Of a stretch of 64,000 nt of DNA, positions 1,884-53,005 are shown piece by piece. The stretch's first letter is position 1. The number at the start of each line of letters is the position of its first letter. The stretch is from Sphingomonadaceae bacterium. GTDB taxonomy: Bacteria; Pseudomonadota; Alphaproteobacteria; Sphingomonadales; Sphingomonadaceae. The notes below the pieces were generated by a model. The model had not been told where the DNA came from and searched no databases. It saw only the letters and a list, made by a program, of their open reading frames with translations. The stretch is from positions 16,310 to 80,309 of the forward strand of contig JAWKXP010000006.1 in assembly GCA_041396945.1 (NCBI GenBank). Reading direction: 5' to 3'. The position numbers and the translations under genes are program-made.

Positions 1884-1903
1884 ACCTAGCGGTATGATTA
1901 GCC
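1884..1903. promoter_or_regulatory. lux-box-like site
   Basis: ACCT-AGCGGTATGATT-AGCC; minus-strand -10-like CATTAT begins 31.5 bp from centre (1862). Confidence 0.6.
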
Positions 1904-1905
1904 GC

Positions 1906-1925
1906 CCCTCGCCAATGCCACAGGT
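1906..1925. promoter_or_regulatory. lux-box-like site
   Basis: CCCT-CGCCAATGCCAC-AGGT; plus-strand TAGCAT at 1947, 31.5 bp from centre. Confidence 0.65.
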
Positions 1926-1977
1926 TCGCGCTTGCCGGTGGATGGCTAGCATGCCTGCCAACTAGACCATATGGGAG

Positions 1978-2415
1978 ATGCCTGAGATGCCTTTTACCGG
2001 ACCTGCCGACGATATCGCCGCGATCCGCGACCTGCTCGATACCTACGCCGACGCGGTGACGCAGCGCGATGCCGATGCCTGGGGCGCGACCTGGGCCGAG
2101 GATGGCTACTGGACGATGCCCGACTATCCCGAGTTCCCCTCGCAGACCGGACGTGAGAACATCGTTGCGATGTGGGTCGAAGCGATGAAGCAGTTTCCCG
2201 GCATCATGTTCGAGGCATGGCCCGGCTCGATCGAGGTTTCCGGCGAGAGCGCGAAGGTGCGCAGCTACACCAGCGAGACCTATGACCAGGGCGAAAACAC
2301 CGTGCGCGATCGCGGCGAGTACCAGGACGAGTGCGTCAAGATCGACGGGCGCTGGTATTTCAAGCAGCGCGCTTTCAAGAACATCCACAAGCAGGTCGCG
2401 CCCAAGGGCGTCTGA
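1978..2415 (+). CDS. SnoaL/NTF2-like protein
   Basis: AIRDLLDTYADAV..W.EDGYW..GEYQDECVKIDGRWYFKQR; alternative start 1987; paralogue of 23069..23509. Confidence 0.85.
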   Translation: MPEMPFTGPADDIAAIRDLLDTYADAVTQRDADAWGATWAEDGYWTMPDYPEFPSQTGRENIVAMWVEAMKQFPGIMFEAWPGSIEVSGESAKVRSYTSETYDQGENTVRDRGEYQDECVKIDGRWYFKQRAFKNIHKQVAPKGV

Positions 2416-2458
2416 TTTGGCGCGCCTGCCGCGCGTCCATCCAGATCGGTGAACCAAC

Positions 2459-2487
2459 AAAAAAGGCGGGGCTCGCACCCCGCCTTT
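2459..2487 (-). terminator. Rho-independent terminator (possibly bidirectional)
   Basis: AAAGGCGGGG-loop-CCCCGCCTTT hairpin with U-tract on minus strand, between convergent genes. Confidence 0.8.
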
Positions 2488-2509
2488 CCTGTTTCGGTTG
2501 TCGCTTCGA

Positions 2510-4960
2510 TCAGAAGTGCTTGGTCAGCTCCAGCTTGACCGTGCGCGGCAGGTTGCCGAAGCCGAGCTGGTCGGCCTTGACGCCCGTGACGCCGCCCGAA
2601 CCGGTGCCGGTGCTGGGGCCGTCGACCACGCCGGTGACATAGAACTCGTTGGTGAGGTTCTTGCCGATCAGCGCGAGCTGCCAGTTGCCGTCGGCAGCGC
2701 CGAAGCGCAGGCCGGCGTCAAGCGAGACGTAGCTCTTCTGGTAAGCGATCGGGTTGGCGAACGCCGACGGGTTGTAGCCGTCGCTGTAACGCGCGTTGCC
2801 GTTGAAGCCGATCATGAAGTCCGAGCCAACATCGGTTTCGAAGTTGATGCCGAGCACGCCGGTCCATTTCGGCGCGACCGAAAGCTGCTGGCCGGTCAGG
2901 TTCTGGCGAATCTGGCCGTCGGCGGTCACGACGTTACAGCCTTCCGCCTGGGTCTGGCCGGAATAGCACGGACCTTCGGGGAAGCTGTCGTACTTCGCAT
3001 CGTTGTAGTTCACCGCAGCCATGATGTTCAGGCCCGGAACCGCGCGCGGCGCGTATTCCAGCTCAACTTCTACGCCCGAGGTCTTCGCATCGGCGGTCAG
3101 CGTGTTGAACGCGAAGACCGGCGAGTTGAAGAAGTCGACCTGGAAGTCCTTCACCTTGTAGGTGAAAACGGTCAGGTTCGCGCGCAGCTGGTTGTCGAGG
3201 ATCGTCGACTTGATGCCGAGCTCGAAACCTTCGGCTTCTTCGGGGTTGAAGGTAAGGTCGCTGTACGGATCGGCCGAGAACTTCGAGTTGATGCCGCCGT
3301 TCGAGAAACCGCCCGATTTGTAAGCGGTCTTGTAGGCGCCGTAGATCAGGAAGTTGCGGTTCGGGTTATAGGTCAGCGTGACTTCCGGGGCGAAGTCCTT
3401 GAACTTCTGGTTGGCGTTCACGATGCCGAGCGGATCGGCTGCCGAACGATAGACCACTGCGAACGCGGGATTGACGTATTCCTGCGCGAAGTAGCTGTTC
3501 TTCGATTCGTCGGTGTAGCGGCCACCGGCGGCGAGTTCGAACGCCTCGGTGAAGTTGACCGTCATCTGGCCGAACAGCGCGATCGTTTCACCCGTGGTGT
3601 CGCTGATCTTTTCCGAAGCTGCGTAAAGCAGGTCCGGGCGTGCGGCGGAATCGCGAACGTCGCCGTAGTAGCCCCACTGGCCGAAATCGCGCTTGGTGTG
3701 CTGGTACAGCCCGCCGACCATGAAGTTGAACATGCCGTCCAGGTTCGAGGTCAGGCGCAGTTCCTGCGAATAGGCTTCCCAGGTCGAGTTTTCGGTGGCG
3801 AAGATCATGCCGCCCGGTGCCGTGTCGGTGGTCTGGAAGTTACAGGCACAGGCCCAGCTGTTCTGGTTCCACTGGTAGTTCGAAACCGAGTTGATCATCA
3901 GCGTGTCGAGATCGATTTCGAGCTCGTTGTTGATCGCCCAGCTGCGATAACGGTTATAGGGCGAGCCATCGGCGCGGCCATAAGGCGAGATGCGCGAGAC
4001 TTCGACCGGCAGGTTGTTCTGGTGCGTGACGAAGTCGCGTTCGCACGGATAGCCGCTGAGCTGGCTGATACCGCTAGCAAGGCCGCACGAATAGGCGACA
4101 TAGTTCCAGCTGTTGTTGACCGTGTCGTTCTGGTCACGCGTTGCCTTGAGCGTGTTGGTCACGGTCGACGAAGGCGTCCACTTCAGCGTGATGCGGCCCA
4201 GCAGTTCTTCCTGCTGCGGCATCTTGCTGGCGACCGGGGTCGAGGTCAGCACTTCGGGATTGGTGAAGCCGGTGGCGACATCGACCGTCGCGTAGTTGCG
4301 ATTGACCGAGACGTTGCGATAGTAACCGCCGCTCATGTCCGAATAGCGCAGCGCAAGGCGAATGCCGAGGTTGTCGCTGATCGGGCCGGAGATGATGCCT
4401 TCGACCTGGTACTGTTCGGCCTTGAATTCGTAACCGGCCTTGAACGTGCCTTCCCAGATGTCCGTGGGATCCTTGGTGGTCAGCGAAATCACGCCGGCGG
4501 TCGCGTTCTTGCCGAAGAACAGCGCCTGCGGGCCCTTGAGGACCTCGACGCGTTCGAGGTCGAAGAAGCCTTCCTCGATGACGCGGCCCTGGCCGTAATA
4601 CGCGCCGTCGACGACGATCGCGACCGACTGCTCGATACCGATCGAGGTCGAGGACGAACCGATACCGCGCAGGGTGATCTGGGCGGCGGAACCGTTGGAG
4701 GCGCGGCCGACGTTGAGGTTCGGCGTGGCAGCGGCGATCTTTTCGATCGAGGTGATGTCGCGCTGCGCGATCATCTCGCCCGAAAGCGCGGTGACCGAGA
4801 CCGGGACGGTCTGCAGGCTTTCCTCACGCTTACGCGCGGTAACGACGATATCCGCAATGCCGCCTTCGCTGGCACCCTCGTCCTGAGCCAGGGCGGGTTG
4901 CGCGGCTACGAAAGAGCCGAGAACCGAACTGGCAAGAAGCAACGATTTGGTGAATTTCAT
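2510..4960 (-). CDS. TonB-dependent receptor
   Basis: Signal peptide MKFTKSLLLASS, DIVVTARKREE, VEVLKGPQ, C-terminal Phe; SD GGGAGG before ATG 4960. Confidence 0.95.
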   Translation of the reverse strand: MKFTKSLLLASSVLGSFVAAQPALAQDEGASEGGIADIVVTARKREESLQTVPVSVTALSGEMIAQRDITSIEKIAAATPNLNVGRASNGSAAQITLRGIGSSSTSIGIEQSVAIVVDGAYYGQGRVIEEGFFDLERVEVLKGPQALFFGKNATAGVISLTTKDPTDIWEGTFKAGYEFKAEQYQVEGIISGPISDNLGIRLALRYSDMSGGYYRNVSVNRNYATVDVATGFTNPEVLTSTPVASKMPQQEELLGRITLKWTPSSTVTNTLKATRDQNDTVNNSWNYVAYSCGLASGISQLSGYPCERDFVTHQNNLPVEVSRISPYGRADGSPYNRYRSWAINNELEIDLDTLMINSVSNYQWNQNSWACACNFQTTDTAPGGMIFATENSTWEAYSQELRLTSNLDGMFNFMVGGLYQHTKRDFGQWGYYGDVRDSAARPDLLYAASEKISDTTGETIALFGQMTVNFTEAFELAAGGRYTDESKNSYFAQEYVNPAFAVVYRSAADPLGIVNANQKFKDFAPEVTLTYNPNRNFLIYGAYKTAYKSGGFSNGGINSKFSADPYSDLTFNPEEAEGFELGIKSTILDNQLRANLTVFTYKVKDFQVDFFNSPVFAFNTLTADAKTSGVEVELEYAPRAVPGLNIMAAVNYNDAKYDSFPEGPCYSGQTQAEGCNVVTADGQIRQNLTGQQLSVAPKWTGVLGINFETDVGSDFMIGFNGNARYSDGYNPSAFANPIAYQKSYVSLDAGLRFGAADGNWQLALIGKNLTNEFYVTGVVDGPSTGTGSGGVTGVKADQLGFGNLPRTVKLELTKHF

Positions 4961-5020: not shown

Positions 5021-5040
5021 CACTGACAGAATGAATAGAC
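5021..5040. promoter_or_regulatory. lux-box-like site
   Basis: CACT-GACAGAATGAAT-AGAC; minus-strand TAACGC begins at 4999 (31.5 bp). Confidence 0.55.
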
Positions 5041-5058
5041 CTATCCATAGTGTGAGGT
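5039..5058. promoter_or_regulatory. lux-box-like site
   Basis: ACCT-ATCCATAGTGTG-AGGT, perfect lux-box flanks. Confidence 0.65.
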
Positions 5059-5109: not shown

Positions 5110-6120
5110 ATGACGACAAACCGGTTCTGGCAGCTTGACCAGCGGCCCGAAGGCACCAATTTCGAAGCGGCACTGAGCCTTCGCGAGGAGAGCCTCGCGC
5201 TGCTGGCCGATGGCGAGGTGCGCATTCGCAACCGCTGGCTTTCGATGGATGCGGGCACGCGCATGTGGATGAGCCCGCGCACCGATGGCTATCAGCCGCC
5301 GTTACCGCTCGGCGCGAAGATGATCGGGCTGGTGCTCGGAAATATCACCATGAGCCGCAATCCGGACTATCCCGAAGGCGCACTGGTGCGCGGGTTCGGG
5401 CAGTGGGCGGACTATTCGACCGTGGTGCCTGCGGAAACCGGCCTTGAGATCGTGGATGATACCGTCGCCGATCCGCGCGAGCATTTCGGCGCTTTGGGGA
5501 TGAACGCCTGGACCGCCTATGTCGGCGTAAAAGAGGTCGCGGCGGTGCAGCCGGGCGAATGGCTGGTCGTTTCGGCGGCGGCGGGCGCAACGGGTTCGCT
5601 GGCCTGTCAGGTCGGGCGCAACCTTGGCGCGAAGGTCATCGGCATTGCCGGCGGTCCGGACAAGTGCCGCTTCCTCAGCGAGGAGATCGGCGTCGACATC
5701 GCCATCGACTACAAGAACGAGGACGTCGAGGCGCGGCTGGCAGAGGTCGAGGGCGGGGTGCATGCCTATTTCGACAACGTCGGCGGTCCGCTGCTCGATG
5801 CCGTCCTGCCCAACATGGCACATTACGGACGCGTTGCGGTCTGCGGGATGGTCGCGGGCTATGACAACGATGCGCCGATGCCGGGGCCTGCGCGCTTCGA
5901 TCAGGTCCTGATGCGGCGGCTGCGGATCGAGGGCTTCTTCATCCCCGACTTCCTCGAACGCGGCGCGGAGTTCATGCCGCAGCTGCGCGAATGGCTCGAT
6001 GCGGGCAAGCTGTCGATGCGGTTTGCCGAGAGCGAAGGGCTGGAGAACGTGCTTGAGGCCTATCGCGGGATGCTGACCGGCAAGAATACCGGCAAGGCCA
6101 TCGTCGCGCTCGCCGCCTGA
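5110..6120 (+). CDS. NADP-dependent alkenal/enone reductase (PTGR/CurA-like, MDR family)
   Basis: SAAAGATGS, IAGGPDKC, YFDNVGG, VCGMV. Confidence 0.9.
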   Translation: MTTNRFWQLDQRPEGTNFEAALSLREESLALLADGEVRIRNRWLSMDAGTRMWMSPRTDGYQPPLPLGAKMIGLVLGNITMSRNPDYPEGALVRGFGQWADYSTVVPAETGLEIVDDTVADPREHFGALGMNAWTAYVGVKEVAAVQPGEWLVVSAAAGATGSLACQVGRNLGAKVIGIAGGPDKCRFLSEEIGVDIAIDYKNEDVEARLAEVEGGVHAYFDNVGGPLLDAVLPNMAHYGRVAVCGMVAGYDNDAPMPGPARFDQVLMRRLRIEGFFIPDFLERGAEFMPQLREWLDAGKLSMRFAESEGLENVLEAYRGMLTGKNTGKAIVALAA

Positions 6121-6908
6121 TGCCGACGATCGACCACCACGCCGCGATCAACTGCCTTGTCGCGGTGCGCGGGCATCCCTTCGACCGCACGGCTTTTGCC
6201 GGGGTATTCGAGGGGATGGACGGCATCTCGGCGACGATGGTCGACCAGCCCGCTGCCGCGCGCCTCATCAACCCCGAGGGCATGCGCGGCTTCGACGTAC
6301 TGGTGCTTTACGACATGCCCGGGCTCGATTTCGACGCGGGCGAGGGCGCGCCTGCCTATCTCGATCCGCCCGACGAATTGCGCGAGGGCCTGCGCGCGAT
6401 GACGCAGCAGGGCACCGGCATCGTTGCGCTGCATCATGCGCTCGCCGGATGGCCGACATGGAGCGCGTATCACGAATGGCTCGGCGGGCAGTTCCACTAT
6501 CACCCGGCAGGCGACACGCCCGACAGCGGCTATCGCCACGATGTCGCCTATGAAGCTGAGGTGGTGGCCGAGCATCCTGTGACAGCAGGCCTGCCGCAGC
6601 GTTTCTCGATGCAGGATGAGCTTTACCTCTGCCAGATCGACGAGGCCGGAGTGGAGCCGCTGCTGCGCTCATCCGCGACCTTCACGCGCGAGCATTTCTG
6701 GTCGGCGGACCTCGCCGTTCGCGGGCAGATGAATTCACGCGAGGGCTGGGAACATCCGCCGGGATCGAACCTGATCGGCTGGACGAAGCAGGTAGCGCAA
6801 AGCCGCCTCGTCTATCTCCAGCCGGGCGACGGGCCGTCAGCATACGACAACCCGCACTACCGGCGGCTGGTGGAGAACGCGATCCGCTGGGTAGGGGATC
6901 GCGGTTAG
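6120..6908 (+). CDS. ThuA-like domain protein
   Basis: RGHPFD, VALHHA, LGGQF.YH, HPVT.GLP..F...DELY; TGATG coupling to the upstream gene. Confidence 0.8.
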   Translation: MPTIDHHAAINCLVAVRGHPFDRTAFAGVFEGMDGISATMVDQPAAARLINPEGMRGFDVLVLYDMPGLDFDAGEGAPAYLDPPDELREGLRAMTQQGTGIVALHHALAGWPTWSAYHEWLGGQFHYHPAGDTPDSGYRHDVAYEAEVVAEHPVTAGLPQRFSMQDELYLCQIDEAGVEPLLRSSATFTREHFWSADLAVRGQMNSREGWEHPPGSNLIGWTKQVAQSRLVYLQPGDGPSAYDNPHYRRLVENAIRWVGDRG

Positions 6909-10103: not shown

Positions 10104-10123
10104 ACCTGCGAAAAAGCACAGGT
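10104..10123. promoter_or_regulatory. lux-box-like site
   Basis: ACCTG-CGAAAAAGCA-CAGGT; same length and 5-bp arms as the canonical lux box. Confidence 0.75.
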
Positions 10124-16311: not shown

Positions 16312-16331
16312 CCCTCGCCTTTTGGATAGGA
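16312..16331. promoter_or_regulatory. lux-box-like site
   Basis: CCCT-CGCCTTTTGGAT-AGGA, upstream of the Rieske gene pair. Confidence 0.65.
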
Positions 16332-16341: not shown

Positions 16342-16361
16342 TCCTCGCCTTTTTGACAGGC
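16342..16361. promoter_or_regulatory. lux-box-like site
   Basis: TCCT-CGCCTTTTTGAC-AGGC; near copy of the previous box, 30 bp away. Confidence 0.65.
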
Positions 16362-17249: not shown

Positions 17250-17269
17250 CACTGCCTTTTTGAACAGGA
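17250..17269. promoter_or_regulatory. lux-box-like site (bidirectional)
   Basis: CACT-GCCTTTTTGAAC-AGGA; TAGCCC (+, 17291) and CAGGGT (-, 17228) both 31.5 bp from centre. Confidence 0.65.
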
Positions 17270-21280: not shown

Positions 21281-21300
21281 AACTGGCGAAAAGGCAAGGA
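21281..21300. promoter_or_regulatory. lux-box-like site
   Basis: AACT-GGCGAAAAGGCA-AGGA; minus-strand CACGGT begins at 21259 (31.5 bp). Confidence 0.65.
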
Positions 21301-21319
21301 CCTGTTACCTTTGGCAGCT
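21300..21319. promoter_or_regulatory. lux-box-like site
   Basis: ACCT-GTTACCTTTGGC-AGCT upstream of a Rieske gene. Confidence 0.65.
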
Positions 21320-25756: not shown

Positions 25757-25776
25757 TACTGTCACTTTGGACAGAA
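25757..25776. promoter_or_regulatory. lux-box-like site
   Basis: TACT-GTCACTTTGGAC-AGAA (CTGTC/GACAG arms); minus-strand CAGGTT begins at 25735 (31.5 bp). Confidence 0.65.
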
Positions 25777-25798
25777 ATCCGGCAGCCCCGCCGGTTTT
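25775..25798. promoter_or_regulatory. 24-bp TetR-type operator, type A
   Basis: AAATCCGGCA-GCCC-CGCCGGTTTT. Confidence 0.6.
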
Positions 25799-26468
25799 AT
25801 TGCCTGCCATAGAGCTGCGCCACCGTTTGCGTGACCAGCGCGCGCACTTTTGCCATGCGCTCACCCTTGCCGAGGACGCCCTCGTTCAGCAGCATTCCGA
25901 TATGCGCGGCATTGGCGAAGTCGCTGGCCAGCTTCATCGCATCCCATTGCTCGCGCCACTGCGGGAAAGCCTCGATCATCTCGCTGATCCAGACCTTGTC
26001 ATAGCGCTTTTCAGCCGGGGCGAAGAGCGCGGCGAGTTCCTCGTCGCTGCGCGCGGCGACGGCCAGTTGCAGGTAAGCGGCATATTCATGCGTATGGACC
26101 GACCGCCAGTGCGCCTCGGTAGCGGTCTCGATAATCTCTTCCTCGCCGCGCGTGCCGAGCGAGGCGAAGTAATCGTCGAGGAACAGGCTCATGCGGCGGT
26201 AGAAAAGGTGGTCGATAACCGCCGCGACAAGGTCCAGCCGCGTTGCGAAATGGTGGTGCATCGCCCCGCGCGAGATTTCGCAGCCCGTGGCAACCGCTGC
26301 GGTGGTGAGGCCCGCGTATCCGGCTTCGACCAGGCAATCGATCCCGGCATCGAGAATCCGCTGACGAGTGCGCGCGGACTTGCGCTGCTGCCACTTTTCG
26401 GGCGGCTCGGCATTGTGCCGGGGATGCATCGCGGAGAGCATCCGGTCCTGGATCGCGGTGGCCTTCAT
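25797..26468 (-). CDS. TetR/AcrR family regulator
   Basis: TRQRILDAG..GYAGLTT..ISRGAMHHHF. Confidence 0.92.
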   Translation of the reverse strand: MKATAIQDRMLSAMHPRHNAEPPEKWQQRKSARTRQRILDAGIDCLVEAGYAGLTTAAVATGCEISRGAMHHHFATRLDLVAAVIDHLFYRRMSLFLDDYFASLGTRGEEEIIETATEAHWRSVHTHEYAAYLQLAVAARSDEELAALFAPAEKRYDKVWISEMIEAFPQWREQWDAMKLASDFANAAHIGMLLNEGVLGKGERMAKVRALVTQTVAQLYGRQ

Positions 26469-26514: not shown

Positions 26515-26534
26515 GCCTATCACTTCGCACAGTT
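26515..26534. promoter_or_regulatory. lux-box-like site
   Basis: GCCT-ATCACTTCGCAC-AGTT; CATAAA at 26556 (31.5 bp). Confidence 0.6.
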
Positions 26535-28999: not shown

Positions 29000-30049
29000 A
29001 TGTCGGCAGCGGACCTGATTGCGCGCCACGCCATTCTCAATGCACTGGCCGTGCACAGCCGGGGGCTGGACCGGGCGGACGCGAACCTGCTCGGCGCGGC
29101 CTACCATCCCGATGCGACGGTCGATTACGGCTTCTTTACCGGACCGGCAGCGGACTTCGTGCCGATCATTATCGGTGCGCAGAAGGCGGGTGGGGTAACG
29201 CTGCACCGCACCGCAAATTGCGAAATCAGGGTTTCTGGCGACCGCGCGGTCTCCGAGAGCTACGTCATCGCCTATGCCGAGGAGGCCGAGGTCCAGCGCA
29301 CCATATTCGGGCGCTACCTCGACCGCCATGAGTGCCGCGACGGCCTCTGGAAGCTGACGCACCGCACCTATGTGCTCGACGGCAATACCAACCGCGCCAG
29401 CACCGTGATGCGCGGCGATCCGCCCGCCGCTCACGACAATTATGTGCCCGAAGGCGGCAAGGGTGCCTCCGATCCGGGCCGGGCCTTGCTCGCCCACCAC
29501 GAAGCCGCCAGCCGCAGATTACAGGGAGCCGGATCGATGACCGCAGAAACCGACGCACTCGACGAAGCGCTTTCGCGCGATGCCATCCGCAGGCTGGCCA
29601 CGACCTACAGCCGCGCGGTCGATCGCGGTGACAAGGAGATGCTTGCCTCGATCTTCTGGGACGATTCGGTGGTGATCTCCGGCCTCGTCAATGCCTCGGG
29701 CCATGTCTTTGCCGACCAGATCGTCGACTATGTTGTCGCCAACCTCGACTATTGTTTCCACTCGATCGCCAACGAATGGATCGAGGTGAAAGGCAACCAC
29801 GCGGTCGGCGAGCACTACATCATCGCGCATCAGAGCAGCGGCGGGCAGGACGTGATGACCGGCGGTCGCTATATCGACAGCTACGAGCGTCGCGACGGCG
29901 TCTGGAAGATCGCCAGCCGCACCTTCGTGGCCGACTGGAACACCGCGCACCCGGCCTCGATGGAACTCGACGGGATGTACGAACCGCTGAAAACGCGCGG
30001 CTCCTATGGTAAGGGTGACCCGATCTACGCACATTGGGAGAGCCTGTGA
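29000..30049 (+). CDS. Tandem two-domain SnoaL/NTF2-like protein
   Basis: Two repeats of SR..DR....GRY.D.(H/Y)E.RDG.WK...RT. Confidence 0.85.
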   Translation: MSAADLIARHAILNALAVHSRGLDRADANLLGAAYHPDATVDYGFFTGPAADFVPIIIGAQKAGGVTLHRTANCEIRVSGDRAVSESYVIAYAEEAEVQRTIFGRYLDRHECRDGLWKLTHRTYVLDGNTNRASTVMRGDPPAAHDNYVPEGGKGASDPGRALLAHHEAASRRLQGAGSMTAETDALDEALSRDAIRRLATTYSRAVDRGDKEMLASIFWDDSVVISGLVNASGHVFADQIVDYVVANLDYCFHSIANEWIEVKGNHAVGEHYIIAHQSSGGQDVMTGGRYIDSYERRDGVWKIASRTFVADWNTAHPASMELDGMYEPLKTRGSYGKGDPIYAHWESL

Positions 30050-31257
30050 CCACTGCCGCCATCGACTGTCCGCCCCATGTCGACCCCTCGCAGGTCGTCG
30101 ACATCAATATCTATGCCTTGCCCGGGCAGGAGCGCGATTTCCACGCCGCGTGGAAGGCGCTGCAGGACGCATCGCCTGACATCGTCTGGACACCGCAGAA
30201 CGAAGGCCACTGGATTGCGCTGCGCGGCGATATCCTTGCCGAAGTGCAGTCCGATCATGAGCGCTTTTCAAACCGCGTGATTATCCTGCCCAAGTCGGTG
30301 GGCGAGGGGCATGGCCTGATCCCGACTACCATCGATCCGCCCGAGCATCGCCCTTATCGCAAGCTGCTCAACGACGGCATGGCACTGGGCAAGGTGCGCG
30401 CGATGCACGATTCGATCCGCGCGGTCGCCGGCGAACTGATCGACGGGTTCGTCGCCGAGGGGCGCTGCGATTTTACCCGCGACTATGCGCTGGTCTTCCC
30501 GATCCGCATCTTCATGGCGCTGACCGACGTACCCATGGCGGACGCGGAAAAGATCATGTTCTGGGCGGCCTGCATGACCCGGCCCGACCAGCCGCTGAGC
30601 TTCGACGAGGCCAAGGCGAATTTCTACGAATATCTCGCGCCCGTCATCGAAGCGCGCCGCGCGCAGCCGGGCGAAGACCTGCTCAGCCACCTCATCAACA
30701 CGCCGATGGTCGATGGCCGCGTCGTCGGGCATGACGAGGCGCTGGCGCTTTGCACGCAGATCCTGATCGCGGGCGTCGATACCGTGGTCAATTTCCTCTC
30801 GTTCGCGATGCTGACTATTGCCGCCGACCCGGCGCTCCAGAGCGAGTTGCGCGGGCGCGAGTTCAACGGCGTGCTCGCTGCCACGCACGAGCTGTTCCGC
30901 CGCTTCGGCCTTGTCATCATCGCGCGAACCGTGCGGCACGACATGGAATTCCACGGCGCCCAGCTCAAGGCGGGCGAGCTGGTCTGCATCCCGACGCAGG
31001 TTCACGGCCTCGACGAGCGGATCAATCCCGAGCCGATGACGGTCGACCTGGCGCGCAAGAGCGCGCGGCACTCCGCCTTCGGCAGCGGCCCGCATATGTG
31101 CCCCGGACAGGAACTCGCGCGCGCCGAAGTCGCGATCACGATCGAGGAATGGCTCAGGCGCATCCCCGAATTCCGCGTCGCCGCCGATGCCGACACCGGC
31201 ATCTCGGGCGGCATCGTCGCGCAGGTCAACCGGCTGGTGCTGGAGTGGGACGCATGA
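30046..31257 (+). CDS. Cytochrome P450, CYP101 family (CYP101B-like)
   Basis: WTPQNEGHWI, LPKSVGEGHGLIPTTIDPPEH, AGVDTV, ELFRR, FGSGPHMCPG; GTGA overlap. Confidence 0.92.
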   Translation: MTTAAIDCPPHVDPSQVVDINIYALPGQERDFHAAWKALQDASPDIVWTPQNEGHWIALRGDILAEVQSDHERFSNRVIILPKSVGEGHGLIPTTIDPPEHRPYRKLLNDGMALGKVRAMHDSIRAVAGELIDGFVAEGRCDFTRDYALVFPIRIFMALTDVPMADAEKIMFWAACMTRPDQPLSFDEAKANFYEYLAPVIEARRAQPGEDLLSHLINTPMVDGRVVGHDEALALCTQILIAGVDTVVNFLSFAMLTIAADPALQSELRGREFNGVLAATHELFRRFGLVIIARTVRHDMEFHGAQLKAGELVCIPTQVHGLDERINPEPMTVDLARKSARHSAFGSGPHMCPGQELARAEVAITIEEWLRRIPEFRVAADADTGISGGIVAQVNRLVLEWDA

Positions 31258-32450: not shown

Positions 32451-32470
32451 CCCTATCGAATCGGCCAGTA
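32451..32470. promoter_or_regulatory. lux-box-like site
   Basis: CCCT-ATCGAATCGGCC-AGTA; CAATAA at 32492 (31.5 bp). Confidence 0.6.
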
Positions 32471-36832: not shown

Positions 36833-37420
36833 ATGCCGCTGATCGTCGACAAGGCAGAACGCCGCGCCACGGTTGCGCGCGTGGCGTTCGATCTTGTCGC
36901 CGACAATGGCATCGGCGCGGTGACTTTCCGGCAGGTGGCGGATGCGGCGGGTGCATCCACCGCGATCGTCAGCAACTATTTCCGCGACAAGAACGACCTC
37001 CTCTTCGAGGTCTATCGCCTCGCCAACCACCGCGCGATGGAGCGCCTTGAGGCGTCGTTTGCGAAAGGCGCGGAGCTTGTCGATTGCCTTGCGCAGGTGC
37101 TGCCCGTCTCGCGCGAGATGCAGCGCGGCTGGCGCGTCTGGCTGGCCTTCTGGGGCCTGTCGCACTCCGATCCCGAGTTCCAGCGAGAAACCGCCGAAAA
37201 CGCGAGCGCGAGCGTCGAGCTTTACCGCCGCATGCTCGCCCGGCGCTATGGCGGCGAGCCGGAAGCCGCGCACATCGAAGCCAAGGCCCGGCGTCTCGTC
37301 GCGACAGTCGGCGGGCTGGGTCTGCAGGCCTGCCTCGCCCCCGCCGACTGGCCGCTGGACCGGTTGCGCGCGATCATTGCCGATGAAATCCGCGCGTTCG
37401 ACGACCTCGCCGACTGGTGA
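36833..37420 (+). CDS. TetR family regulator (BetI/PksA-like C-terminus)
   Basis: MPLIVD..ERR, VTFRQVA..AG.S...VSNYF..K, RVWLAFW. Confidence 0.9.
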   Translation: MPLIVDKAERRATVARVAFDLVADNGIGAVTFRQVADAAGASTAIVSNYFRDKNDLLFEVYRLANHRAMERLEASFAKGAELVDCLAQVLPVSREMQRGWRVWLAFWGLSHSDPEFQRETAENASASVELYRRMLARRYGGEPEAAHIEAKARRLVATVGGLGLQACLAPADWPLDRLRAIIADEIRAFDDLADW

Positions 37421-37442
37421 TGCGCAGCAGCACCTATTTTAT

Positions 37443-37456
37443 ATGACAGTCGTCAT
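37443..37456. promoter_or_regulatory. Operator candidate
   Basis: ATGAC-AGTC-GTCAT in an AT-rich patch between the TetR and the flavoprotein operon. Confidence 0.5.
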
Positions 37457-44423: not shown

Positions 44424-44429
44424 AAGAAA

Positions 44430-45248: not shown

Positions 45249-46027
45249 AGTCCCATCATCCCTGCTGTGGTTGCCCCGTCGATTACGTATTCGCTGCCCG
45301 AGACGAAGCTCGATTCGTCGCTGCCGAGCCAGGCGACCAGCCCGGCGATTTCCTCGACCGTGGCCATGCGCCCGAGCGCGGCCATCGATTCGTAGCCTGC
45401 GCGCATCGCGGCGGGATCGTCGGAACCGTCGATCAGGTTGGTAATCATCGCCGTTTCGACCACGCCGGGCAGGATCGCGTTGGTGCGGATCTTGTACCCC
45501 TTGCCGCCGCAATGCACCGCCGCCGACTTGACCAGCGCGACGACCGCCGCCTTGGTCACCGAATAGGCGACGAAATTGCCCATCGCGCGGTGCGCGTTCA
45601 TCGAGGAATTGACGATGATCGAGCCGGTCGGCCCGTCCGGATTGTCGCGCATGGCGCGAATCGCGTGCTGGATCGTGAGCATCACGCCGGTCTGGTTGAC
45701 GCCAACGATCTTTTCCCAGCCCTCGATGGTGATGTCCTCGACCGAGGAATCGCCAGCTTCGGTGCCGGCATTGGCAAAGGCGATGTCGAGCCGCCCGTGA
45801 TCGGCGGCGATTGCCTTCATCAGCTCAGGCCAGGCGCTTGCATCGGCCACGTTATGTGCATGGAACGTCGCTCCGGTTTTCTCGCAAAGCGCCTTGGCAG
45901 CCTCGGCATTCGATCCGGTAAAGACGACCTTCGCGCCTTCGCTGGTCAGCCGTTCGACGGTACCCGCGCCGATGCCCGACGTGCCGCCGGTGATAAGCGC
46001 AACCTTGCCTTCGAGCCGTTTGGTCAC
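45245..46027 (-). CDS. SDR oxidoreductase
   Basis: TGGTSGIG, ANAG, YSVTK; GTG start after GGAGG. Confidence 0.88.
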   Translation of the reverse strand: MTKRLEGKVALITGGTSGIGAGTVERLTSEGAKVVFTGSNAEAAKALCEKTGATFHAHNVADASAWPELMKAIAADHGRLDIAFANAGTEAGDSSVEDITIEGWEKIVGVNQTGVMLTIQHAIRAMRDNPDGPTGSIIVNSSMNAHRAMGNFVAYSVTKAAVVALVKSAAVHCGGKGYKIRTNAILPGVVETAMITNLIDGSDDPAAMRAGYESMAALGRMATVEEIAGLVAWLGSDESSFVSGSEYVIDGATTAGMMGL

Positions 46028-46084
46028 GGCATCCTCCATATTATCCTCGTTCCTCGCGGTTTGCCGTATATCGTCTGGCTTGAA

Positions 46085-46104
46085 ACCTATGCTTTCGGCA
46101 AGGT
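46085..46104. promoter_or_regulatory. lux-box-like site (bidirectional)
   Basis: ACCT-ATGCTTTCGGCA-AGGT; CAGAAC (+, 46126) and CAAACC (-, 46063) at 31.5 bp. Confidence 0.7.
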
Positions 46105-47717: not shown

Positions 47718-48014
47718 CTAAATCCCGTTCAGAAGCATGTCGAGCGCGCCGAATACGACATATTCCTGATCGGCGACCGACGCGATGACCGGGCCAAGCT
47801 CGCGGACCGGCATGGCCGAAGCCAGATCGGCATAAAACACGAGCCGTTCCTCGCCGACCGTCAGCTGCGGGTTAAGCCGGTTGATCGGGGCAGGACCGTC
47901 TTCGGCGGTCGCCAGCGGCACGACGAGCCGCGTGGTCAGATAGGCATGCATGTCCGACTGGCAGTCGACCACGCGGGTGCCGTCGGCGAGGCGGTGGACA
48001 TCGAAATGCGCCAT
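47718..48014 (-). CDS. ccdB: CcdB family toxin
   Basis: MAHFDVH..VVDCQSD..LTTRLVVPL..RLNP..ALDMLLNGI; TGATG overlap with the antitoxin. Confidence 0.88.
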   Translation of the reverse strand: MAHFDVHRLADGTRVVDCQSDMHAYLTTRLVVPLATAEDGPAPINRLNPQLTVGEERLVFYADLASAMPVRELGPVIASVADQEYVVFGALDMLLNGI

Positions 48015-48250
48015 CAGAACATGCGATATTTGGCGAGCGGCAAGCCGTTCTTCTCGACCCAGGCGTTGTGGGATTCGATCGCCTCGCGGTTCTCTTCCAG
48101 CCATTTCTCGCGGCGTTTCTCCGCAAGTTCGGCGACAATGCCGCGTTCGGCGGCCTGCGAGAGGTTGATGCCGAGTTCCTTCGCCTCGGCCACGACATCG
48201 GCCGGGAGCGAAATATTGGTCGAGCGTTTCTGCGCCTTTGTCATGCGCAT
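48014..48250 (-). CDS. ccdA: CcdA family antitoxin
   Basis: KRSTNISL..AKELGINLS..WLEENREAI..N..VEKNGLPL..YRMF (start may be 48244). Confidence 0.92.
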   Translation of the reverse strand: MRMTKAQKRSTNISLPADVVAEAKELGINLSQAAERGIVAELAEKRREKWLEENREAIESHNAWVEKNGLPLAKYRMF

Positions 48251-48358: not shown

Positions 48359-49117
48359 ATGACCGAAGAAAACCGCCCGCCCCGGATCGACTGTGTGCTT
48401 ATTGCCGGGGGCGTCTGGCATGACATCGACTTTGCGCGGCTCGAACTTCTCAAGCTGCTCGCCGAGGATCAGGCGGTGCGCACGCGCGTGTTCGAGGATT
48501 ACGAGAATATCGAGGCGATCAGGAACGCCGACATCATCATCACCTATACCTGTGACGTGACGCCCTCGCTCGCCGCGCAGGAAGCGCTGCGCGACTGGGC
48601 CGAGGCGGGCGGGCGCTGGTATGCGCTGCACGGCACGAATTCGGTGCTGCGCCTGATGGATGACGGCCTCTGGGACGCGCCGCGCTGGGCGCCGCTGTTC
48701 ATGGACCTGCTCGGCAGCCAGTTCATCTCGCACCCGCCGATTGCGCCTTACAAGGTGACGGTCGCCGATCCGGGGCATCCGCTGGTCGAAGGCGTCGAGC
48801 CGTTCGAGACCACCGACGAGCTATACCACCTCGAAACGCACGGCGACCTGCACGTCCTGCTCGAAACCGAATGCACCGAAGAGGGCACCGGTTTCCGCGA
48901 AGCCGCCGATGCGCCGGGCACGCATCCGGTCTTCTACATCAAGCCGCGCGGCAAGGGCGCGGTGCTTTACAACACGCTGGGCCACTGCCGGGGGCACTAT
49001 GACCTGCAGCCGATGGCCGACTGGTGGCCGACGGTCGACCGCTGCGCCTGGGACCTGCCGGTCTTCTACGAGCTGCTGCGGCGCGGGATCGCGTGGATCA
49101 AGCAGCGCGAGGGTTGA
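48359..49117 (+). CDS. ThuA-like domain protein
   Basis: YALHG, LGSQFISHPP, HPLVEG..F...DELY, YNTLGH. Confidence 0.8.
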   Translation: MTEENRPPRIDCVLIAGGVWHDIDFARLELLKLLAEDQAVRTRVFEDYENIEAIRNADIIITYTCDVTPSLAAQEALRDWAEAGGRWYALHGTNSVLRLMDDGLWDAPRWAPLFMDLLGSQFISHPPIAPYKVTVADPGHPLVEGVEPFETTDELYHLETHGDLHVLLETECTEEGTGFREAADAPGTHPVFYIKPRGKGAVLYNTLGHCRGHYDLQPMADWWPTVDRCAWDLPVFYELLRRGIAWIKQREG

Positions 49118-49126
49118 TGGTATCTC

Positions 49127-49283
49127 GCCCCTCCTGTTGGGCTGCGCCCGCCTGCGGCTCAGTGGAGGGGCAGCGAGACTTACCTAGCCGAAGGCGAGGA
49201 TAGTCGCCTGGGGTGGGGCATTCGCCGCGTGTAACGCGAGGCTGCGTAGCCCCCACCCCCGTCCCCTCCCTGAAGGAGAGGGG
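49127..49283. repeat. CIR/RIME-like element (degenerate, with insertion)
   Basis: GCCCCTCC..GGAGGGGC, GGGGTGGGGC/GCCCCACCCC, CCCCTCCCTGAAGGAGAGGGG. Confidence 0.7.
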
Positions 49284-49305
49284 TGAGGATTCCGATGCGT
49301 TTCAA

Positions 49306-50412
49306 TCAGCTCACCCCAGCGAACCGGTCGAGCGCGGTTTCGGGCGAATCGGGCCAGCGCGAGAGCACCAGCAGGCGTTTGTGGCCGTGGCCGATGGCGA
49401 GTTCGTCGGTAACGCCCATGCCGCCGTGGAACTGGATCATCTCGTGGCCCAGCTCGACCGAGGCCGGGGCGATATAGGCGCGTGCGCCCTCGACCGCCTT
49501 GGCGAAGCCATCCGTGCCTTCCGAAACCAGTGCGAGGTTGAGCAAGGCGCGGGCCTGCTCGATCACGGCATATTGCGCGACCATGCGGTGCTGCAACGCC
49601 TGGAAATTGGCGAGCGCGGTGCCGAACTGTTCGCGCGTGCGCAAATATTCCTGCGTCTCCTCGAACAGGCGCTGCATGATGCCGAGCGCTTCCGCCGAGC
49701 GGGCGAGGCTCGCCAGGGTCTGCGAGGCTTCGATTTCGGCGATGCCGCCGGTCAGGCTTTCCCCGGCAACGCCGTCGAGCGTCAGCGCGACCGCGAGGTT
49801 GCCGTCGGCCAGCCGGAAGGGCCTGATTTCAAGGCCGGACGCATCCGCAGGCACGAAATAAAGCGAAACGCCCTCGGCATCGCCCGGCTCGCCCGAGGTG
49901 CGCGCGGAAACAATAAATCCGTCCGCGCCGCCGCCTGCCGGAACGAACGCTTTTTCGCCGGTCAGCGTAATTCCTGAGCCGTTGCCGCTCGCTTTGGTAT
50001 CGACCCAGAGCCGGTTGTCGCGCGCGCCTGCCTCGGCATGGGCAAGGGCAACGCGCCGCTCGCCGAACATGATCGCGGGCAGCCATTCCTCGCGCAGCGC
50101 TTCGGGCGCGGTCGCTTCGAACAGCTTGCCGGCCAGCAGCACGTTTTCGATCACCGGCTCAACCGTCAGGCCCTTGCCAAGCGCTTCGAAGATCGTCGCG
50201 ATCCCGGTCGCATCAAGTGCAAGCCCTTCGGATTCTTCGGAAAACGGCGCAGCCAGGATGCCCAGCTCGCCCAGCAGCGACCACATCGCGGGCGAAAACC
50301 CGTTGGGCTCGCCAAGGAACGCCTTGCGCTTTTCGGTATCGTAGTGATCGACGACGAACCGCTCGGCCAATGCCTTGAGCATTTCCTCGTCTTCGCTGAG
50401 GTCGAAATTCAA
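49306..50412 (-). CDS. Acyl-CoA dehydrogenase, small (PimD-like) subunit
   Basis: TTG start MNFDLSED, REQFG..FQALQH, IQFHGGMGVT. Confidence 0.88.
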   Translation of the reverse strand: MNFDLSEDEEMLKALAERFVVDHYDTEKRKAFLGEPNGFSPAMWSLLGELGILAAPFSEESEGLALDATGIATIFEALGKGLTVEPVIENVLLAGKLFEATAPEALREEWLPAIMFGERRVALAHAEAGARDNRLWVDTKASGNGSGITLTGEKAFVPAGGGADGFIVSARTSGEPGDAEGVSLYFVPADASGLEIRPFRLADGNLAVALTLDGVAGESLTGGIAEIEASQTLASLARSAEALGIMQRLFEETQEYLRTREQFGTALANFQALQHRMVAQYAVIEQARALLNLALVSEGTDGFAKAVEGARAYIAPASVELGHEMIQFHGGMGVTDELAIGHGHKRLLVLSRWPDSPETALDRFAGVS

Positions 50413-50463
50413 ATCCAGCTCCCCTTCTCAAGGCCCTTCTTAGCACCGATGCCCGCCGCGCCA

Positions 50464-50483
50464 CGCTGGGTAAAATAATAGGG
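50464..50483. promoter_or_regulatory. lux-box-like site
   Basis: CGCT-GGGTAAAATAAT-AGGG; minus-strand TAAGAA begins at 50442 (31.5 bp); lies upstream of luxR. Confidence 0.6.
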
Positions 50484-50561
50484 TTTGATCGTGCAAAGCT
50501 CGCAATTGTACCAAGGGCGCACAGTCGTTATGCTGTCCTTAAGGGAGAGAGGAGCGAACAA

Positions 50562-51329
50562 CTGATAACGCAGGAACGCATAGATTCCGTCCGCGTGGAC
50601 GGGCCGGACGATATCCGCCGGGCGGCGAAGGCACTGCACGATATCGCGATCGAGCACGAGATGCGCGCCGCGCCCGCGCATGACATCGCCGACAAGCGCA
50701 CGCCGGTCGATGCCGAGGGCAATATCCTTGCCAAGGATATCTTCGGCTGGCCCGATGACGAGCGCGTCTGGTGGCGCAATTCGCGCATCGCGCTCGACAG
50801 CCCGCTGACCGCTGCCTGCCGCTTCGAATCCCAGCCATTCTGGGCCAACGCCGAAGGGTTTCGCACTCGCCAGCCCAACGCCTATCTCGATTCGATCGAC
50901 ATCTCCAATTTCGAACAGCGGGCGATGACCAAGTGCACGATTGGTGTGCCGGTGCACCTGCCATTCGGGCGAATCGGCGCGGTCAGCTTCAATCCGCTCG
51001 ACCTTGAAAAGACCGACCTCGAGAAGGAATTCCTCGAACTGGGTGACGCCTTCGGGCTCTACGCGCGCACCTTCATCGCCACCTATGTGCATGTGATGGG
51101 TTCGATCCAGGCGCTCCCGCCCGAATCGCACCTGTCGAAACGCGAGGTCGAGTGCCTGCGCTGGGCCGCGATCGGCAAGACCGACCTTGAGATCAGCATG
51201 ATTATCTCGCGCAGCCGGGCGACGGTGCGCTTCCATATTCATAATGCCGCGACGAAGCTCAACGCGGTCAACCGCAGCCAGACGGTCTTCAAGGCCGCGC
51301 AGCTGGGTTATATTTCGCTGAATCGGTAA
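50562..51329 (+). CDS. LuxR-family solo regulator (autoinducer-binding-like domain plus LuxR HTH)
   Basis: LSKREVECLRWAAIGKTD.EI......TVRFH..NA..KL...NR.Q; N-terminal GWP..W..DSP..PFW..VPVH..G; start CTG 50562 (SD GAGGAG) or GTG 50595. Confidence 0.9.
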   Translation: MITQERIDSVRVDGPDDIRRAAKALHDIAIEHEMRAAPAHDIADKRTPVDAEGNILAKDIFGWPDDERVWWRNSRIALDSPLTAACRFESQPFWANAEGFRTRQPNAYLDSIDISNFEQRAMTKCTIGVPVHLPFGRIGAVSFNPLDLEKTDLEKEFLELGDAFGLYARTFIATYVHVMGSIQALPPESHLSKREVECLRWAAIGKTDLEISMIISRSRATVRFHIHNAATKLNAVNRSQTVFKAAQLGYISLNR

Positions 51330-51332
51330 GAG

Positions 51333-52937
51333 TTACTTCCGATCCGCGAGAATCAGGTCGCCCGCGCGCAGGCCCAGCGCCATAGCCGGGGCGTTGGTGT
51401 TGCCGGTGACGTGCCCCGGGATCACCGAGCAATCGACCACGCGCACACCTTCCACCCCGTTCACCTTGAGTGTCGGATCGACCACGGCGGTGTTGTCGCT
51501 GCCCATGCGGCACGAGCGGATCGCGTGCAGCCCGCAGCTTGAAAGCCGCGCGAAAGCGTCGAGCAGGTCTTCGTCGGATTGCGCCGAGGGACCGGGCAGC
51601 TCCTCCTTGCCCACCATATCGCCAAGCGGCGGCGCGGCCATATAGGCGCGCATCAGCCGCATCAGCTTCACCGCCGAGGTGCGGTCATGCTCGGTCGAAA
51701 GCCAGTTGGGCAGGATATGCGGTGCATCGCCGGTCGATGGCCCGGTCGCACGCACCGAGCTTTCGCTGGTGAGCCGCAGCAGCTGGCCATAGATCGTCAC
51801 GCCGGGGCGCGGGTCGATCTTGTCGAGCGGCACCGGGTTGCCATCGTCGGCGACCTCGAAGGTATAGCCGCCGAGGTAAAGCTGCGCATCGGTACGCCCG
51901 TCGGGATGCGCGACGTTGAGGAACGCGCCGACCTCGAACGGCCCGGTCGCCATGATCCCGTCACGCTTTAACAGGTAGCGCGCCATCGCCAGTGCCGAGC
52001 CCAGCCCGAAAAAGCTTTTGTTCGTGCCGACGCCCTTTTCGAGCCGGTAAGGCATCGAGAATGAGAGATGCTCGATCATCCGCTCGCCGACATCGGGCGA
52101 ATGGGTGACAACCTCGATCCCCGCCGCGCGCAGCCGTTCGGCATCGCCGATCCCCGAGCGCTGGAGCAGCAGCGGACTTTCCATCGCGCCCGCCGAAACG
52201 ATCACTTCACCCGCGCAGGCAAATCGGCGCGGCTGGCCGTTCACCATGGCTTCGACTGCAACTGCCTTGCGATCCTCGAAGACAATGCGCTCGGCCAATG
52301 CGCTGGTGATGACCTCGACATTGGGTCGCTTGCGCGCGGGCGTGAGGAAGGTGCGCGCGGCGCTTTCGCGTTTCCCGTTACGGATGTTGTGGCTGTAAAG
52401 CCCGACGCGCGGGCCGGTGGTGCCGTTAAGGTCGTCGACGCGTTTGAGGCCCATTGCCTCGCCCGCTTCGATCATCCGGTCCGCCAGCGGGTAGGAGTAG
52501 ATCGCCGGATCGACATGCACCGGCCCGCCCGCGCCGCGCAGTTCGCCAGCGCCCGCCGCGTGGTCTTCGAGCTTGAGGAACGCCTCGGTCATCGACGCAC
52601 CGTTCCATCCGGTCGCGCCCAGGGCTTCCCACTCGTCATAGTCCGCCGGTTCGCCCCGGCTCCAGATCATGCCGTTGATCGAGGACGAGCCGCCAAGGCC
52701 CTTGCCGCGAATCCAGGTCTCGCCCGGACGGCCCTCGGCGACGGGATAGGCCCACATATGCTCGGGCTTGGTCACCAGCTTGGCGACGCCCTTGGGCAGC
52801 GTCACCCAGAACGAATCGTTCTCGCCGCCCGCTTCGAGCACCAGCACGCGCGAGCGCCCGTCCGCGCTCAGCCGCTCGGCAACGACGCATCCCGAAGAGC
52901 CCGCGCCGATCACGATATAGTCGAAGGCCTGTTCCAT
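51333..52937 (-). CDS. GMC family oxidoreductase
   Basis: DYIVIGAGSSG, RGKGLGGSSSING, H...CRMG, GNTNAP. Confidence 0.92.
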   Translation of the reverse strand: MEQAFDYIVIGAGSSGCVVAERLSADGRSRVLVLEAGGENDSFWVTLPKGVAKLVTKPEHMWAYPVAEGRPGETWIRGKGLGGSSSINGMIWSRGEPADYDEWEALGATGWNGASMTEAFLKLEDHAAGAGELRGAGGPVHVDPAIYSYPLADRMIEAGEAMGLKRVDDLNGTTGPRVGLYSHNIRNGKRESAARTFLTPARKRPNVEVITSALAERIVFEDRKAVAVEAMVNGQPRRFACAGEVIVSAGAMESPLLLQRSGIGDAERLRAAGIEVVTHSPDVGERMIEHLSFSMPYRLEKGVGTNKSFFGLGSALAMARYLLKRDGIMATGPFEVGAFLNVAHPDGRTDAQLYLGGYTFEVADDGNPVPLDKIDPRPGVTIYGQLLRLTSESSVRATGPSTGDAPHILPNWLSTEHDRTSAVKLMRLMRAYMAAPPLGDMVGKEELPGPSAQSDEDLLDAFARLSSCGLHAIRSCRMGSDNTAVVDPTLKVNGVEGVRVVDCSVIPGHVTGNTNAPAMALGLRAGDLILADRK

Positions 52938-52985
52938 GGTTTCCCCTCTCTTCCGCAAAGCCTGACATACCTGACGGAAAGGCTA

Positions 52986-53005
52986 CCCTATCGTTTTGGC
53001 GAGTC
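52986..53005. promoter_or_regulatory. lux-box-like site (divergent region)
   Basis: CCCT-ATCGTTTTGGCG-AGTC; minus-strand CAGGCT at 52964 (31.5 bp), plus-strand TAGACA at 53028 (32.5 bp). Confidence 0.6.

Follow-up and report, generated by a model that had tools for sequence, protein, structure and literature searches.

The window analysed here, a stretch of 64,000 nucleotides corresponding to C6:16310-80309 of a Sphingomonadaceae genome that is 77% complete, contains a catabolic gene cluster whose intergenic regions carry a recurrent 20-bp site resembling the lux box, together with one gene for a LuxR-fold regulator. Family scans and our own gene calls place the cluster from position 614 to beyond the window end, and its boxed part spans about 58 kb. 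Uptake genes are represented by three TonB receptors, and oxygenases by a P450 and seven Rieske alpha subunits, one of them fused to a short-chain dehydrogenase/reductase (SDR). Many other SDR and SnoaL proteins are encoded, along with three alkenal-reductase-like proteins and three flavin adenine dinucleotide (FAD) dehydrogenases. The coenzyme A (CoA) and beta-oxidation genes comprise a CoA ligase, two acyl-CoA dehydrogenase subunits, an SCP2-type thiolase with its catalytic cysteine present and an OB-fold partner of this thiolase; a pyruvate dehydrogenase (PDH)-like E1a/E1b/E2 set is also found. The regulators are three TetRs and the LuxR.

A first-pass annotation of this DNA had proposed 17 boxes at 11 promoters, all served by the LuxR. 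The 17 twenty-mers are all present, with CT at positions 3-4 and AG at positions 17-18, and the 15 -10-like hexamers quoted with them do start 31.5 bp from the box centres. The promoter count was too low: the boxes occupy 12 intergenic regions, or 13 counting a new site at 37432. In the list below, hexamers start 31.5 bp from the box centre unless another distance is given; YA denotes a pyrimidine followed by A.

1884..1903, box; CATTAT at 31.5 bp towards SnoaL gene 1418-1825 (-); weakest site, 5.7 bits in the leave-one-out matrix
1906..1925, box; GC-TAGCAT at 31.5 bp towards SnoaL gene 1987-2415 (+)
5021..5040, box; GC-TAACGC towards TonB receptor gene 2510-4960 (-)
5039..5058, box; GG-CACCCC towards alkenal-reductase-like and ThuA genes 5110-6908 (+); CACCCC also follows the orthologous box 71129 of Novosphingobium aromaticivorans pNL2
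10104..10123, box; GC-CATAAG towards TonB receptor gene 7757-10015 (-); on the other side reductase, SDR and SnoaL genes to 13474 (+), with YA at 30.5 bp
16312..16331, box of a tandem pair upstream of Rieske genes 13631-16226 (-); no YA at 31.5 or 32.5 bp
16342..16361, second box of the tandem pair with 16312, 30 bp apart
17250..17269, bidirectional box; TAGCCC towards SDR and FAD dehydrogenase genes 17324-19596 (+), CAGGGT towards SDR gene 16422-17183 (-)
21281..21300, box; GG-CACGGT towards acyl-CoA ligase gene 19619-21247 (-)
21300..21319, box; CAGAGT at 32.5 bp towards Rieske gene 21380-22558 and EthD gene (+)
25757..25776, box; GG-CAGGTT towards Rieske-SDR fusion gene 23643-25676 and SnoaL gene 23069-23509 (-)
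25797..26441 (-), TetR1 gene; not found in several box-bearing genomes
26515..26534, box; CG-CATAAA towards TonB receptor gene 26645-28930, then SnoaL, P450, GFA and SDR genes (+)
30046..31257 (+), CYP101-family P450 gene
32424..32443, box; upstream member of a tandem pair
32451..32470, box; GG-CAATAA towards SnoaL, Rieske, VOC, SnoaL, Rieske and TetR genes 32549-37420 (+)
36833..37420 (+), TetR2 gene (BetI-type)
37432..37451, box; GA-TAGTCA at 31.5 bp towards FAD dehydrogenase genes 37518-42903 (+)
37443..37456, inverted repeat ATGAC-AGTC-GTCAT, overlapping box 37432, just downstream of the TetR2 gene
46085..46104, bidirectional box; CAGAAC towards Rieske gene 46170-47585 (+), CAAACC towards three SDR genes and a cupin gene 43055-46039 (-)
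50464..50483, box; GC-TAAGAA at 31.5 bp towards acyl-CoA dehydrogenase gene 49306-50412 (-); no YA at 31.5 bp towards luxR (+)
50506..50534 (+), predicted sigma-70 promoter of luxR; TTGTAC 50506-50511, 17 bp, TATGCT 50529-50534
50562..51329 (+), gene for the LuxR-fold regulator
52986..53005, bidirectional box; CAGGCT towards GMC oxidoreductase gene 51333-52937 (-); on the other side TAGACA at 32.5 bp towards OB-fold, thiolase, acyl-CoA dehydrogenase, PDH-like E1a/E1b/E2 and VOC genes 53086-59898 (+)
61608..62267 (-), TetR3 gene, in the adjoining box-free block

The 20-bp CT-N12-AG core of lux boxes is present in 17 of the 17 original sites. Their earlier description as lux-box-like palindromes holds for this core and fails beyond it: paired positions came to 4.1 of 10 in the boxes versus 4.7 in 1,151 random CT-N12-AG sites, and inverted-repeat symmetry was thus not found. 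The conserved core of the 20-bp box, CCT-N-Y-C-N-Y-TT-Y-G-S-N-C-AG, lacks symmetry and has a run of T on one of its strands.

The bare CT-N12-AG pattern is common, with 215 matches in the window, and taken by itself counts for little. In promoter-type intergenic DNA the pattern occurred 23 times versus 8.8 times expected from the rest of the genome (p 5e-5). Two other spacers were enriched too, 7 (26 versus 8.6) and 16 (18 versus 7.7), the excess at 7 lying partly inside the boxes themselves and in one hairpin repeat. Motif discovery by unsupervised expectation maximization (EM) on the intergenic DNA of the window returned nCCTatCCtTTngGncAGgn as the top motif. Its information was 17.4, compared with 14.3-14.5 in four shuffles that had half as many starts. 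The top 15 EM sites comprised 12 of the 17 boxes, the new site at 37432 and two hairpin copies. Scored with a leave-one-out matrix, 12 of the 17 sites reached at least 12 bits, and the 18th box at 37432, which lay outside the training set, reached 13.8 bits. Outside the window, at least 12 bits was found at only 28 of 158,506 promoter-type positions. At a threshold of at least 10 bits, 360 sites were counted in the same genome outside the window.

Boxes were found before all three TonB receptors, most Rieske genes, the CoA ligase, the P450 operon and the beta-oxidation genes, which supports this part of the proposed regulon, the LuxR of the cluster being by far the best candidate reader. Its island-wide reach is not supported: the boxes end at 52986, none was found from 60047 on and none lies upstream of the crotonase gene at 614. 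The intergenic regions of a second catabolic block, from 61199 to about 80400, are box-free, the best score there being 7.6 bits. Further regulon members in the genome are not claimed; only 7 of the 28 outside sites have a gene-facing YA, and these have unrelated neighbours, two of them being one duplicated stretch.

The spacing of box and -10 element was fixed at many sites. Of the 34 box directions, 16 have YA at 31.5 bp, for which the background is 0.083 (p 2e-9); the next best of 40 offsets gave 7 of 34. Fifteen of these 16 YA dinucleotides face a gene start, and 13 of the 34 directions show G-n-Y-A at that spacing. The hexamers are otherwise unimpressive, with only 6 of 15 ending in T, as is to be expected because more than 80% of N. 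aromaticivorans sigma-70 promoters are without -7T according to PMC8407463. Table S1 of that paper, a filtered list for growth on glucose or vanillate, gives 23 start sites on pNL2, and two of them fall in the orthologous cluster. The first, NC_009427.1:93701, lies upstream of the ortholog of the Rieske gene 21380, with the -10 hexamer CATGGT 32.5 bp from a predicted box of 11.3 bits. The second, 166646, is the luxR start and follows TTGTTT-17-TATGTC, the window equivalent being TTGTAC-17-TATGCT.

The lux box is centred at -42.5. A box position near -43 had been predicted for the window, and the spacing gives -43.5; at the one mapped target start, 93701, as listed in that table, the centre is at -44.5. 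The class II layout does not apply throughout: the two boxes before the Rieske gene 14829-16226 lack YA at 31.5 or 32.5 bp, and luxR has an ordinary TTG-17-TA promoter unlike the class II layout of the targets. Class II autoactivation of luxR was rejected, with YA at 31.5 or 32.5 bp in only 4 of 29 orthologs. Upstream DNA was compared at 77 luxR loci; another 3 of the 80 were dropped because the gene was cut or its upstream stretch was too short. A box precedes luxR at 69 of the 77, and 51 of these 69 carry TTG-N3-N17-TA. The TTG promoter lies 18-21 nt behind the box in 26 cases and 29-32 nt behind it in 20, one helical turn apart.

Conservation was assessed with the matrix built from the window only, run on 30 stretches: 29 from genomes with a LuxR of at least 70% identity, and N. 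aromaticivorans pNL2. A box of at least 12 bits was found in 105 of 124 intergenic regions heading orthologs of boxed genes, versus 3 of 170 control regions without a cluster homolog; the counts overstate independence because the stretches come from kin. Among 86 distinct boxes in relatives, which were picked by the same matrix, the core letters were C in 82, T in 86, A in 86 and G in 78. At orthologous promoters the DNA between box and -10 diverges and YA at 31.5 or 32.5 bp persists, for example in 25 of 25 orthologs of the small acyl-CoA dehydrogenase, 18 of 19 of the Rieske gene 46170, 17 of 20 of its divergent SDR partner and 7 of 7 at the promoter of SDR gene 17324. The N. aromaticivorans pNL2 cluster is orthologous and similar in gene order, but is split into two blocks (SARO_RS18220-18335 and SARO_RS18510-18680); its proteins are mostly 57-87% identical to those of the window, and boxes lie in 10 of its intergenic regions. 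On NC_009427.1 these predicted boxes start at 71129, 88139, 89587, 93627/93647, 144905, 145666, 150158, 163061, 166572 and 172052. Clusters with distant LuxRs (about 50-60%) are boxed too, with mostly lower scores. The regulon is thus real and conserved.

Within the genus, 135 of 301 genomes have a match to the LuxR at E<=1e-30; in the family as a whole, 65 of 251 genomes have one at E<=1e-50, covering 41 of 112 genera. After leaving out 7 distant thiolases and 7 distant LuxRs, the LuxR and the thiolase occur together in 123 of the 301 (123 of 124 counted one way, 123 of 128 the other), and neither occurs in 172; in the sole co-occurrence exception, relative G097, luxR is cut by the contig end. 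Three relatives (G205, G143 and G141) carry 2-4 LuxR paralogs (45-83%), each beside related oxygenase, SDR and TonB genes, several of which are similarly boxed.

The LuxR has its nearest named homologs among Novosphingobium proteins and is 79% identical to SARO_RS18620/Saro_3549. Translation would start at CTG 50562, 7 nt behind AGGAG, or at GTG 50595, there being no ATG or GTG where homologs start. The helix-turn-helix (PF00196) scored 50.9 bits, and the equivalents of E178, L182 and G188 (E195, L199 and G205) are invariant in 19 of 19 sequences. The AlphaFold model (predicted local distance difference test score 88) matches TraR, QscR, LasR and SdiA across both domains, and its comparison with the LasR ligand-binding domain (Z 12.8, root-mean-square deviation 3.0, 149 aligned) indicates an autoinducer-binding-type fold. 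Nevertheless, the autoinducer-binding family PF03472 scored 14.3 bits, below its cut-off of 23, which 4 of 4 homologs also miss.

Nine diagnostic LuxR positions were taken from PMC4338825. In the LasR alignment, D70 corresponds to Ser80 and G113 to Thr126 (Thr or Ala), while P71 is kept. By spacing from the invariant Pro81, W57 corresponds to Glu67 and Y61 to Trp71; the W85 equivalent is uncertain, Trp94 being one residue off. At least three of the six residues that contact N-acyl homoserine lactones (AHLs) are therefore replaced, and the AHL-binding signature is not conserved as a whole. This altered pocket is conserved across the genus at 70-88% protein identity. A luxI gene was found neither in the window nor in the 77%-complete genome; the same search was positive in 2 of 5 relatives and gave no match in control genomes. 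No autoinducer-binding domain was found in the 77%-complete genome either. The earlier label of a quorum-sensing-type regulator thus holds for the LuxR fold, with no luxI found in the window, but not for an intact AHL pocket. Because PF03472 falls below its cut-off and pocket residues are replaced, the protein is likely a LuxR-fold solo that does not sense AHLs and has a non-AHL ligand.

Taken together, these data make it probable (about 0.8) that the boxes are binding sites of the LuxR of the cluster and that this protein is their activator, probably of class II and probably with a non-AHL inducer. In the mechanism suggested by the layout, the LuxR would sense a substrate-derived, probably non-AHL small molecule and activate the boxed promoters. 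A LuxR dimer on a box centred at about -43.5 or -44.5 would abut the -35 position and recruit sigma-70 polymerase to weak promoters whose -10 is little more than G/S-Y-A, and a divergent gene pair could share one central box. Since luxR is read from an ordinary TTG-17-TA promoter, its product would already be there ahead of induction; the shared box lies at about -65 or -75 of this promoter, two positions that differ by one helical turn, and may contribute class I feedback. At box 37432, the ATGAC-N4-GTCAT repeat is likely a TetR operator, through which the FAD dehydrogenase genes would be kept from being activated.

Several observations weigh against this assignment. The spacing of YA is weak at the orthologs of the thiolase operon (13 of 23) and of the GMC gene (4 of 14) and absent at those of reductase 10289 (0 of 5) and Rieske 14829 (0 of 2), and 19 of the 124 orthologous regions score below 12 bits. 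There is only one target start site to draw on. The announcement of DAP-seq (sequencing after affinity purification of DNA) of Saro_3549 names neither motif nor targets (PMC12352068), and the LuxR may bind DNA unliganded, because addition of a ligand is not part of the described DAP-seq protocol. The CoA ligase, used as a query, matched 109 of the 301 genomes and turned up two relatives, G203 (91% complete) and G270 (100% complete), in which no LuxR ortholog was found and boxes of 11-16 bits are kept. What remains of the cluster in both is its left half, and the surroundings of luxR are missing as well. The G203 cluster stops inside a contig, joined directly to an adenylate kinase gene, and three of its orthologous promoters reach no more than 6-10 bits; the G270 cluster runs off the contig end. 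These two clusters may be remnants or gaps, and they would fit another reader of the boxes too.

Such a reader, one of the three window TetRs or an unlinked factor, is unlikely. TetR1 is kept in the LuxR-less G203, and when the three TetRs were sought in 36 LuxR-bearing genomes (E<=1e-15), it was matched in 25. However, 8 of the 36 matched none of the three, and five of these (G116, G046, G077, G145 and G244) encode a LuxR that is 70-81% identical and, in the stretches seen, show boxes before most promoters of the cluster, which disfavours the TetRs as box readers; two others, G052 and G175, have only distant TetR2-like proteins. A site at a fixed distance upstream of a weak -10 is an activator position, the rarity of sites outside the cluster speaks against a global factor, and CT-N12-AG is the typical lux-box core according to PMC4338825.

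That the LuxR itself binds unliganded as a repressor or ligand-inactivated regulator of the EsaR/CepR2 type, blocking the -35 region, is very unlikely. DAP-seq of Saro_3549, for which no added ligand is described, yielded 375 peaks (PMC12352068), a number of the same order as the 360 outside-window sites of at least 10 bits. On pNL2, one box abuts a TTGGCC -35 and a second covers the luxR start site. The latter was considered as a conserved repressing box and rejected, since no more than 3 of 77 loci have it with a score of at least 9 bits. In most target promoters no -35 can be recognised and the -10 is weak, so that an activator would be needed; moreover, only one target start appears among the 23 pNL2 sites in the filtered list for glucose or vanillate growth.

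Alternatively, the LuxR might read the boxes as an AHL-sensing solo, tying catabolism to the signals of neighbours. The fold matches QscR, SdiA, TraR and LasR over its whole length, homologs are labelled quorum-sensing regulators in some databases, and two of five relatives have LuxI genes. Against this stand the low PF03472 scores of the window protein and its four homologs, the Ser in place of the AHL-contacting Asp, the changed W57 and G113 positions, the lack of LuxI and autoinducer-binding domain matches in the 77%-complete genome and the genus-wide retention of the changed pocket, which make AHL sensing highly improbable. Finally, the sites might have been hits of a 4-bp core that arose by chance and were selected by eye, for which the 215 window matches, the two other enriched spacers and the 5.7 bits of site 1884 could be cited. 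This is refuted for the set as a whole by the unsupervised EM, the held-out genomes (105 of 124 versus 3 of 170) and the fixed YA spacing, although single weak sites (1884 and 5021) may be spurious.

Activation by the LuxR, the preferred reading, can be compared with known systems. With LuxR, TraR, LasR, QscR and SdiA, the window protein has in common the two-domain fold, the invariant helix-turn-helix residues, the 20-bp CT-N12-AG site and the position near -43. It differs from AHL-type LuxRs in its pocket and PF03472 score, and its boxes differ from theirs in the asymmetric T-run core, the number of sites (18) and the catabolic targets. OryR, XccR, PsoR and NesR, plant-associated non-AHL solos, have no LuxI, as none was found for the window protein in its 77%-complete genome, and likewise have a Trp at Y61 and lux-box-like sites (PMC4338825). 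In Table 3 of that paper, the OryR-type solos are listed with W57M and Y61W only and stand beside pip and peptide transporter genes. In the window LuxR, W57 is not Met, D70 and G113 are changed and the neighbours are oxygenase and beta-oxidation genes; family scans found no pip among them, which places the protein outside the OryR/XccR type. LuxR-type regulators described or proposed as activators of catabolic clusters include TeiR/TesR of Comamonas testosteroni and EGO55_13855/Saro_3594 of the pdc cluster (PMC6895838, PMC12239570). Saro_3594 is a separate gene from Saro_3549, and the available portions of these two papers on steroid degraders give no lux-box regulon. Both LuxR-type activators of catabolism and non-AHL solos are thus already known.

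Most of the LuxR solos that have been characterised respond to AHLs or to unknown compounds from plants. In the window, control of an entire catabolic island appears to lie, via 18 boxes, with a LuxR-fold protein whose pocket has been rebuilt, an arrangement common in sphingomonads. The table of a 2015 solo survey, in its available part, has no solo for Novosphingobium sp. AP12, and P0073, named from that strain, is 83% identical to the window LuxR. The subfamily therefore seems to escape domain-based surveys. The literature covered treats CYP101B1 as a biocatalyst and mentions SARO_RS18620 in no more than one row of a DAP-seq table; motif, regulon and pathway were not described in the open-access papers covered, and subscription papers on CYP101B1 and P6W may contain evidence about the substrate. 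With the motif, the limits of the regulon of an uncharacterised pathway can be drawn and CYP101B1 gains a physiological setting, and the exact box coordinates can be compared directly with existing DAP-seq data from a genetically tractable strain (GEO GSE291618, SRR32559713).

Members of the CYP101B subfamily share more than 55% identity with CYP101B1. The window P450 belongs to the CYP101 family and, at 58% identity to SARO_RS18540, falls within CYP101B. The translation of SARO_RS18540 begins as the CYP101B1 (Saro_3533) entry in the supplement of PMC8197338. CYP101B1 oxidises ionone, according to PMC9655578. Its gene on pNL2 is immediately preceded by a box that has CATGAT at 31.5 bp, and a gene annotated as an apo-carotenoid-cleaving dioxygenase is found about 19 kb past the cluster. 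In addition, the LuxR homolog P0061 is named from the abscisic-acid degrader P6W, whose data paper (PMC6938937) gives no induced-gene lists; public RNA-seq of P6W on abscisic acid versus fructose is deposited under PRJNA529223.

The substrate class would be an alicyclic terpenoid with a side chain. It would be imported by the three TonB receptors, oxidised by the CYP101B-type P450 and the seven Rieske alpha subunits, rearranged by SnoaL proteins, SDRs, alkenal reductases and FAD dehydrogenases, and shortened by the CoA ligase, the acyl-CoA dehydrogenases, the SCP2-type thiolase with its OB-fold partner and the PDH-like complex. A norisoprenoid derived from a carotenoid, for instance an ionone or a compound resembling abscisic acid, is a tentative proposal with somewhat less than even odds; it draws on one P450, which many relatives lack in the stretches seen, a further point on the negative side. 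Other terpenoids or steroids take the rest of the probability. Family scans of the window showed no meta-cleavage or other steroid-ring-cleavage genes, and the available part of a bile-salt preprint contained nothing pointing to the cluster genes. Rather more doubtful is the wider proposal of an overlooked LuxR subfamily whose pocket has become a sensor of carotenoid-derived norisoprenoids, such as ionones and abscisic-acid-like compounds of plants or cyanobacteria, and which acts as master activator of a large uncharacterised pathway for these compounds, to which CYP101B1 would naturally belong. The LuxR would be a candidate biosensor if its inducer is a terpenoid.

The second catabolic block, 60047-64000 and on to about window position 80285-80400, contains a second thiolase/OB-fold pair, TetR3, SDRs and further TonB receptors. 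A motif like ACTGCTTTT occurs in it at 62268-62373 and 63130-63236 and may be the TetR3 site.

Structure comparison gave no close solved relative for the cluster Rieske proteins. The gene 23643-25676 encodes a Rieske alpha subunit and an SDR as an in-frame fusion of 677 aa. In G143, G203 and G270 these are separate adjacent genes (448 and 229 aa in G203), so that the fusion is recent or a stop was lost. Proteins with a ThuA domain are encoded at 6120-6908 and 48359-49117, the second being 80-86% conserved in close relatives. Between the latter gene and Rieske gene 46170, which are adjacent in most relatives, lies a CcdB/CcdA-like toxin-antitoxin pair (47718-48250; Pfam).

In a sequencing-run search, the DNA matches were labelled wastewater metagenomes, with no RNA run among those listed. 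Hairpin repeats of the CCCCTCCCC...GGGGAGGGG type, about 130-190 bp long, occupy the intergenic regions 22917-23068, 42904-43054, 44301-44429, 49118-49305 and 59899-60046, and pieces related to them are present in many copies in relatives.

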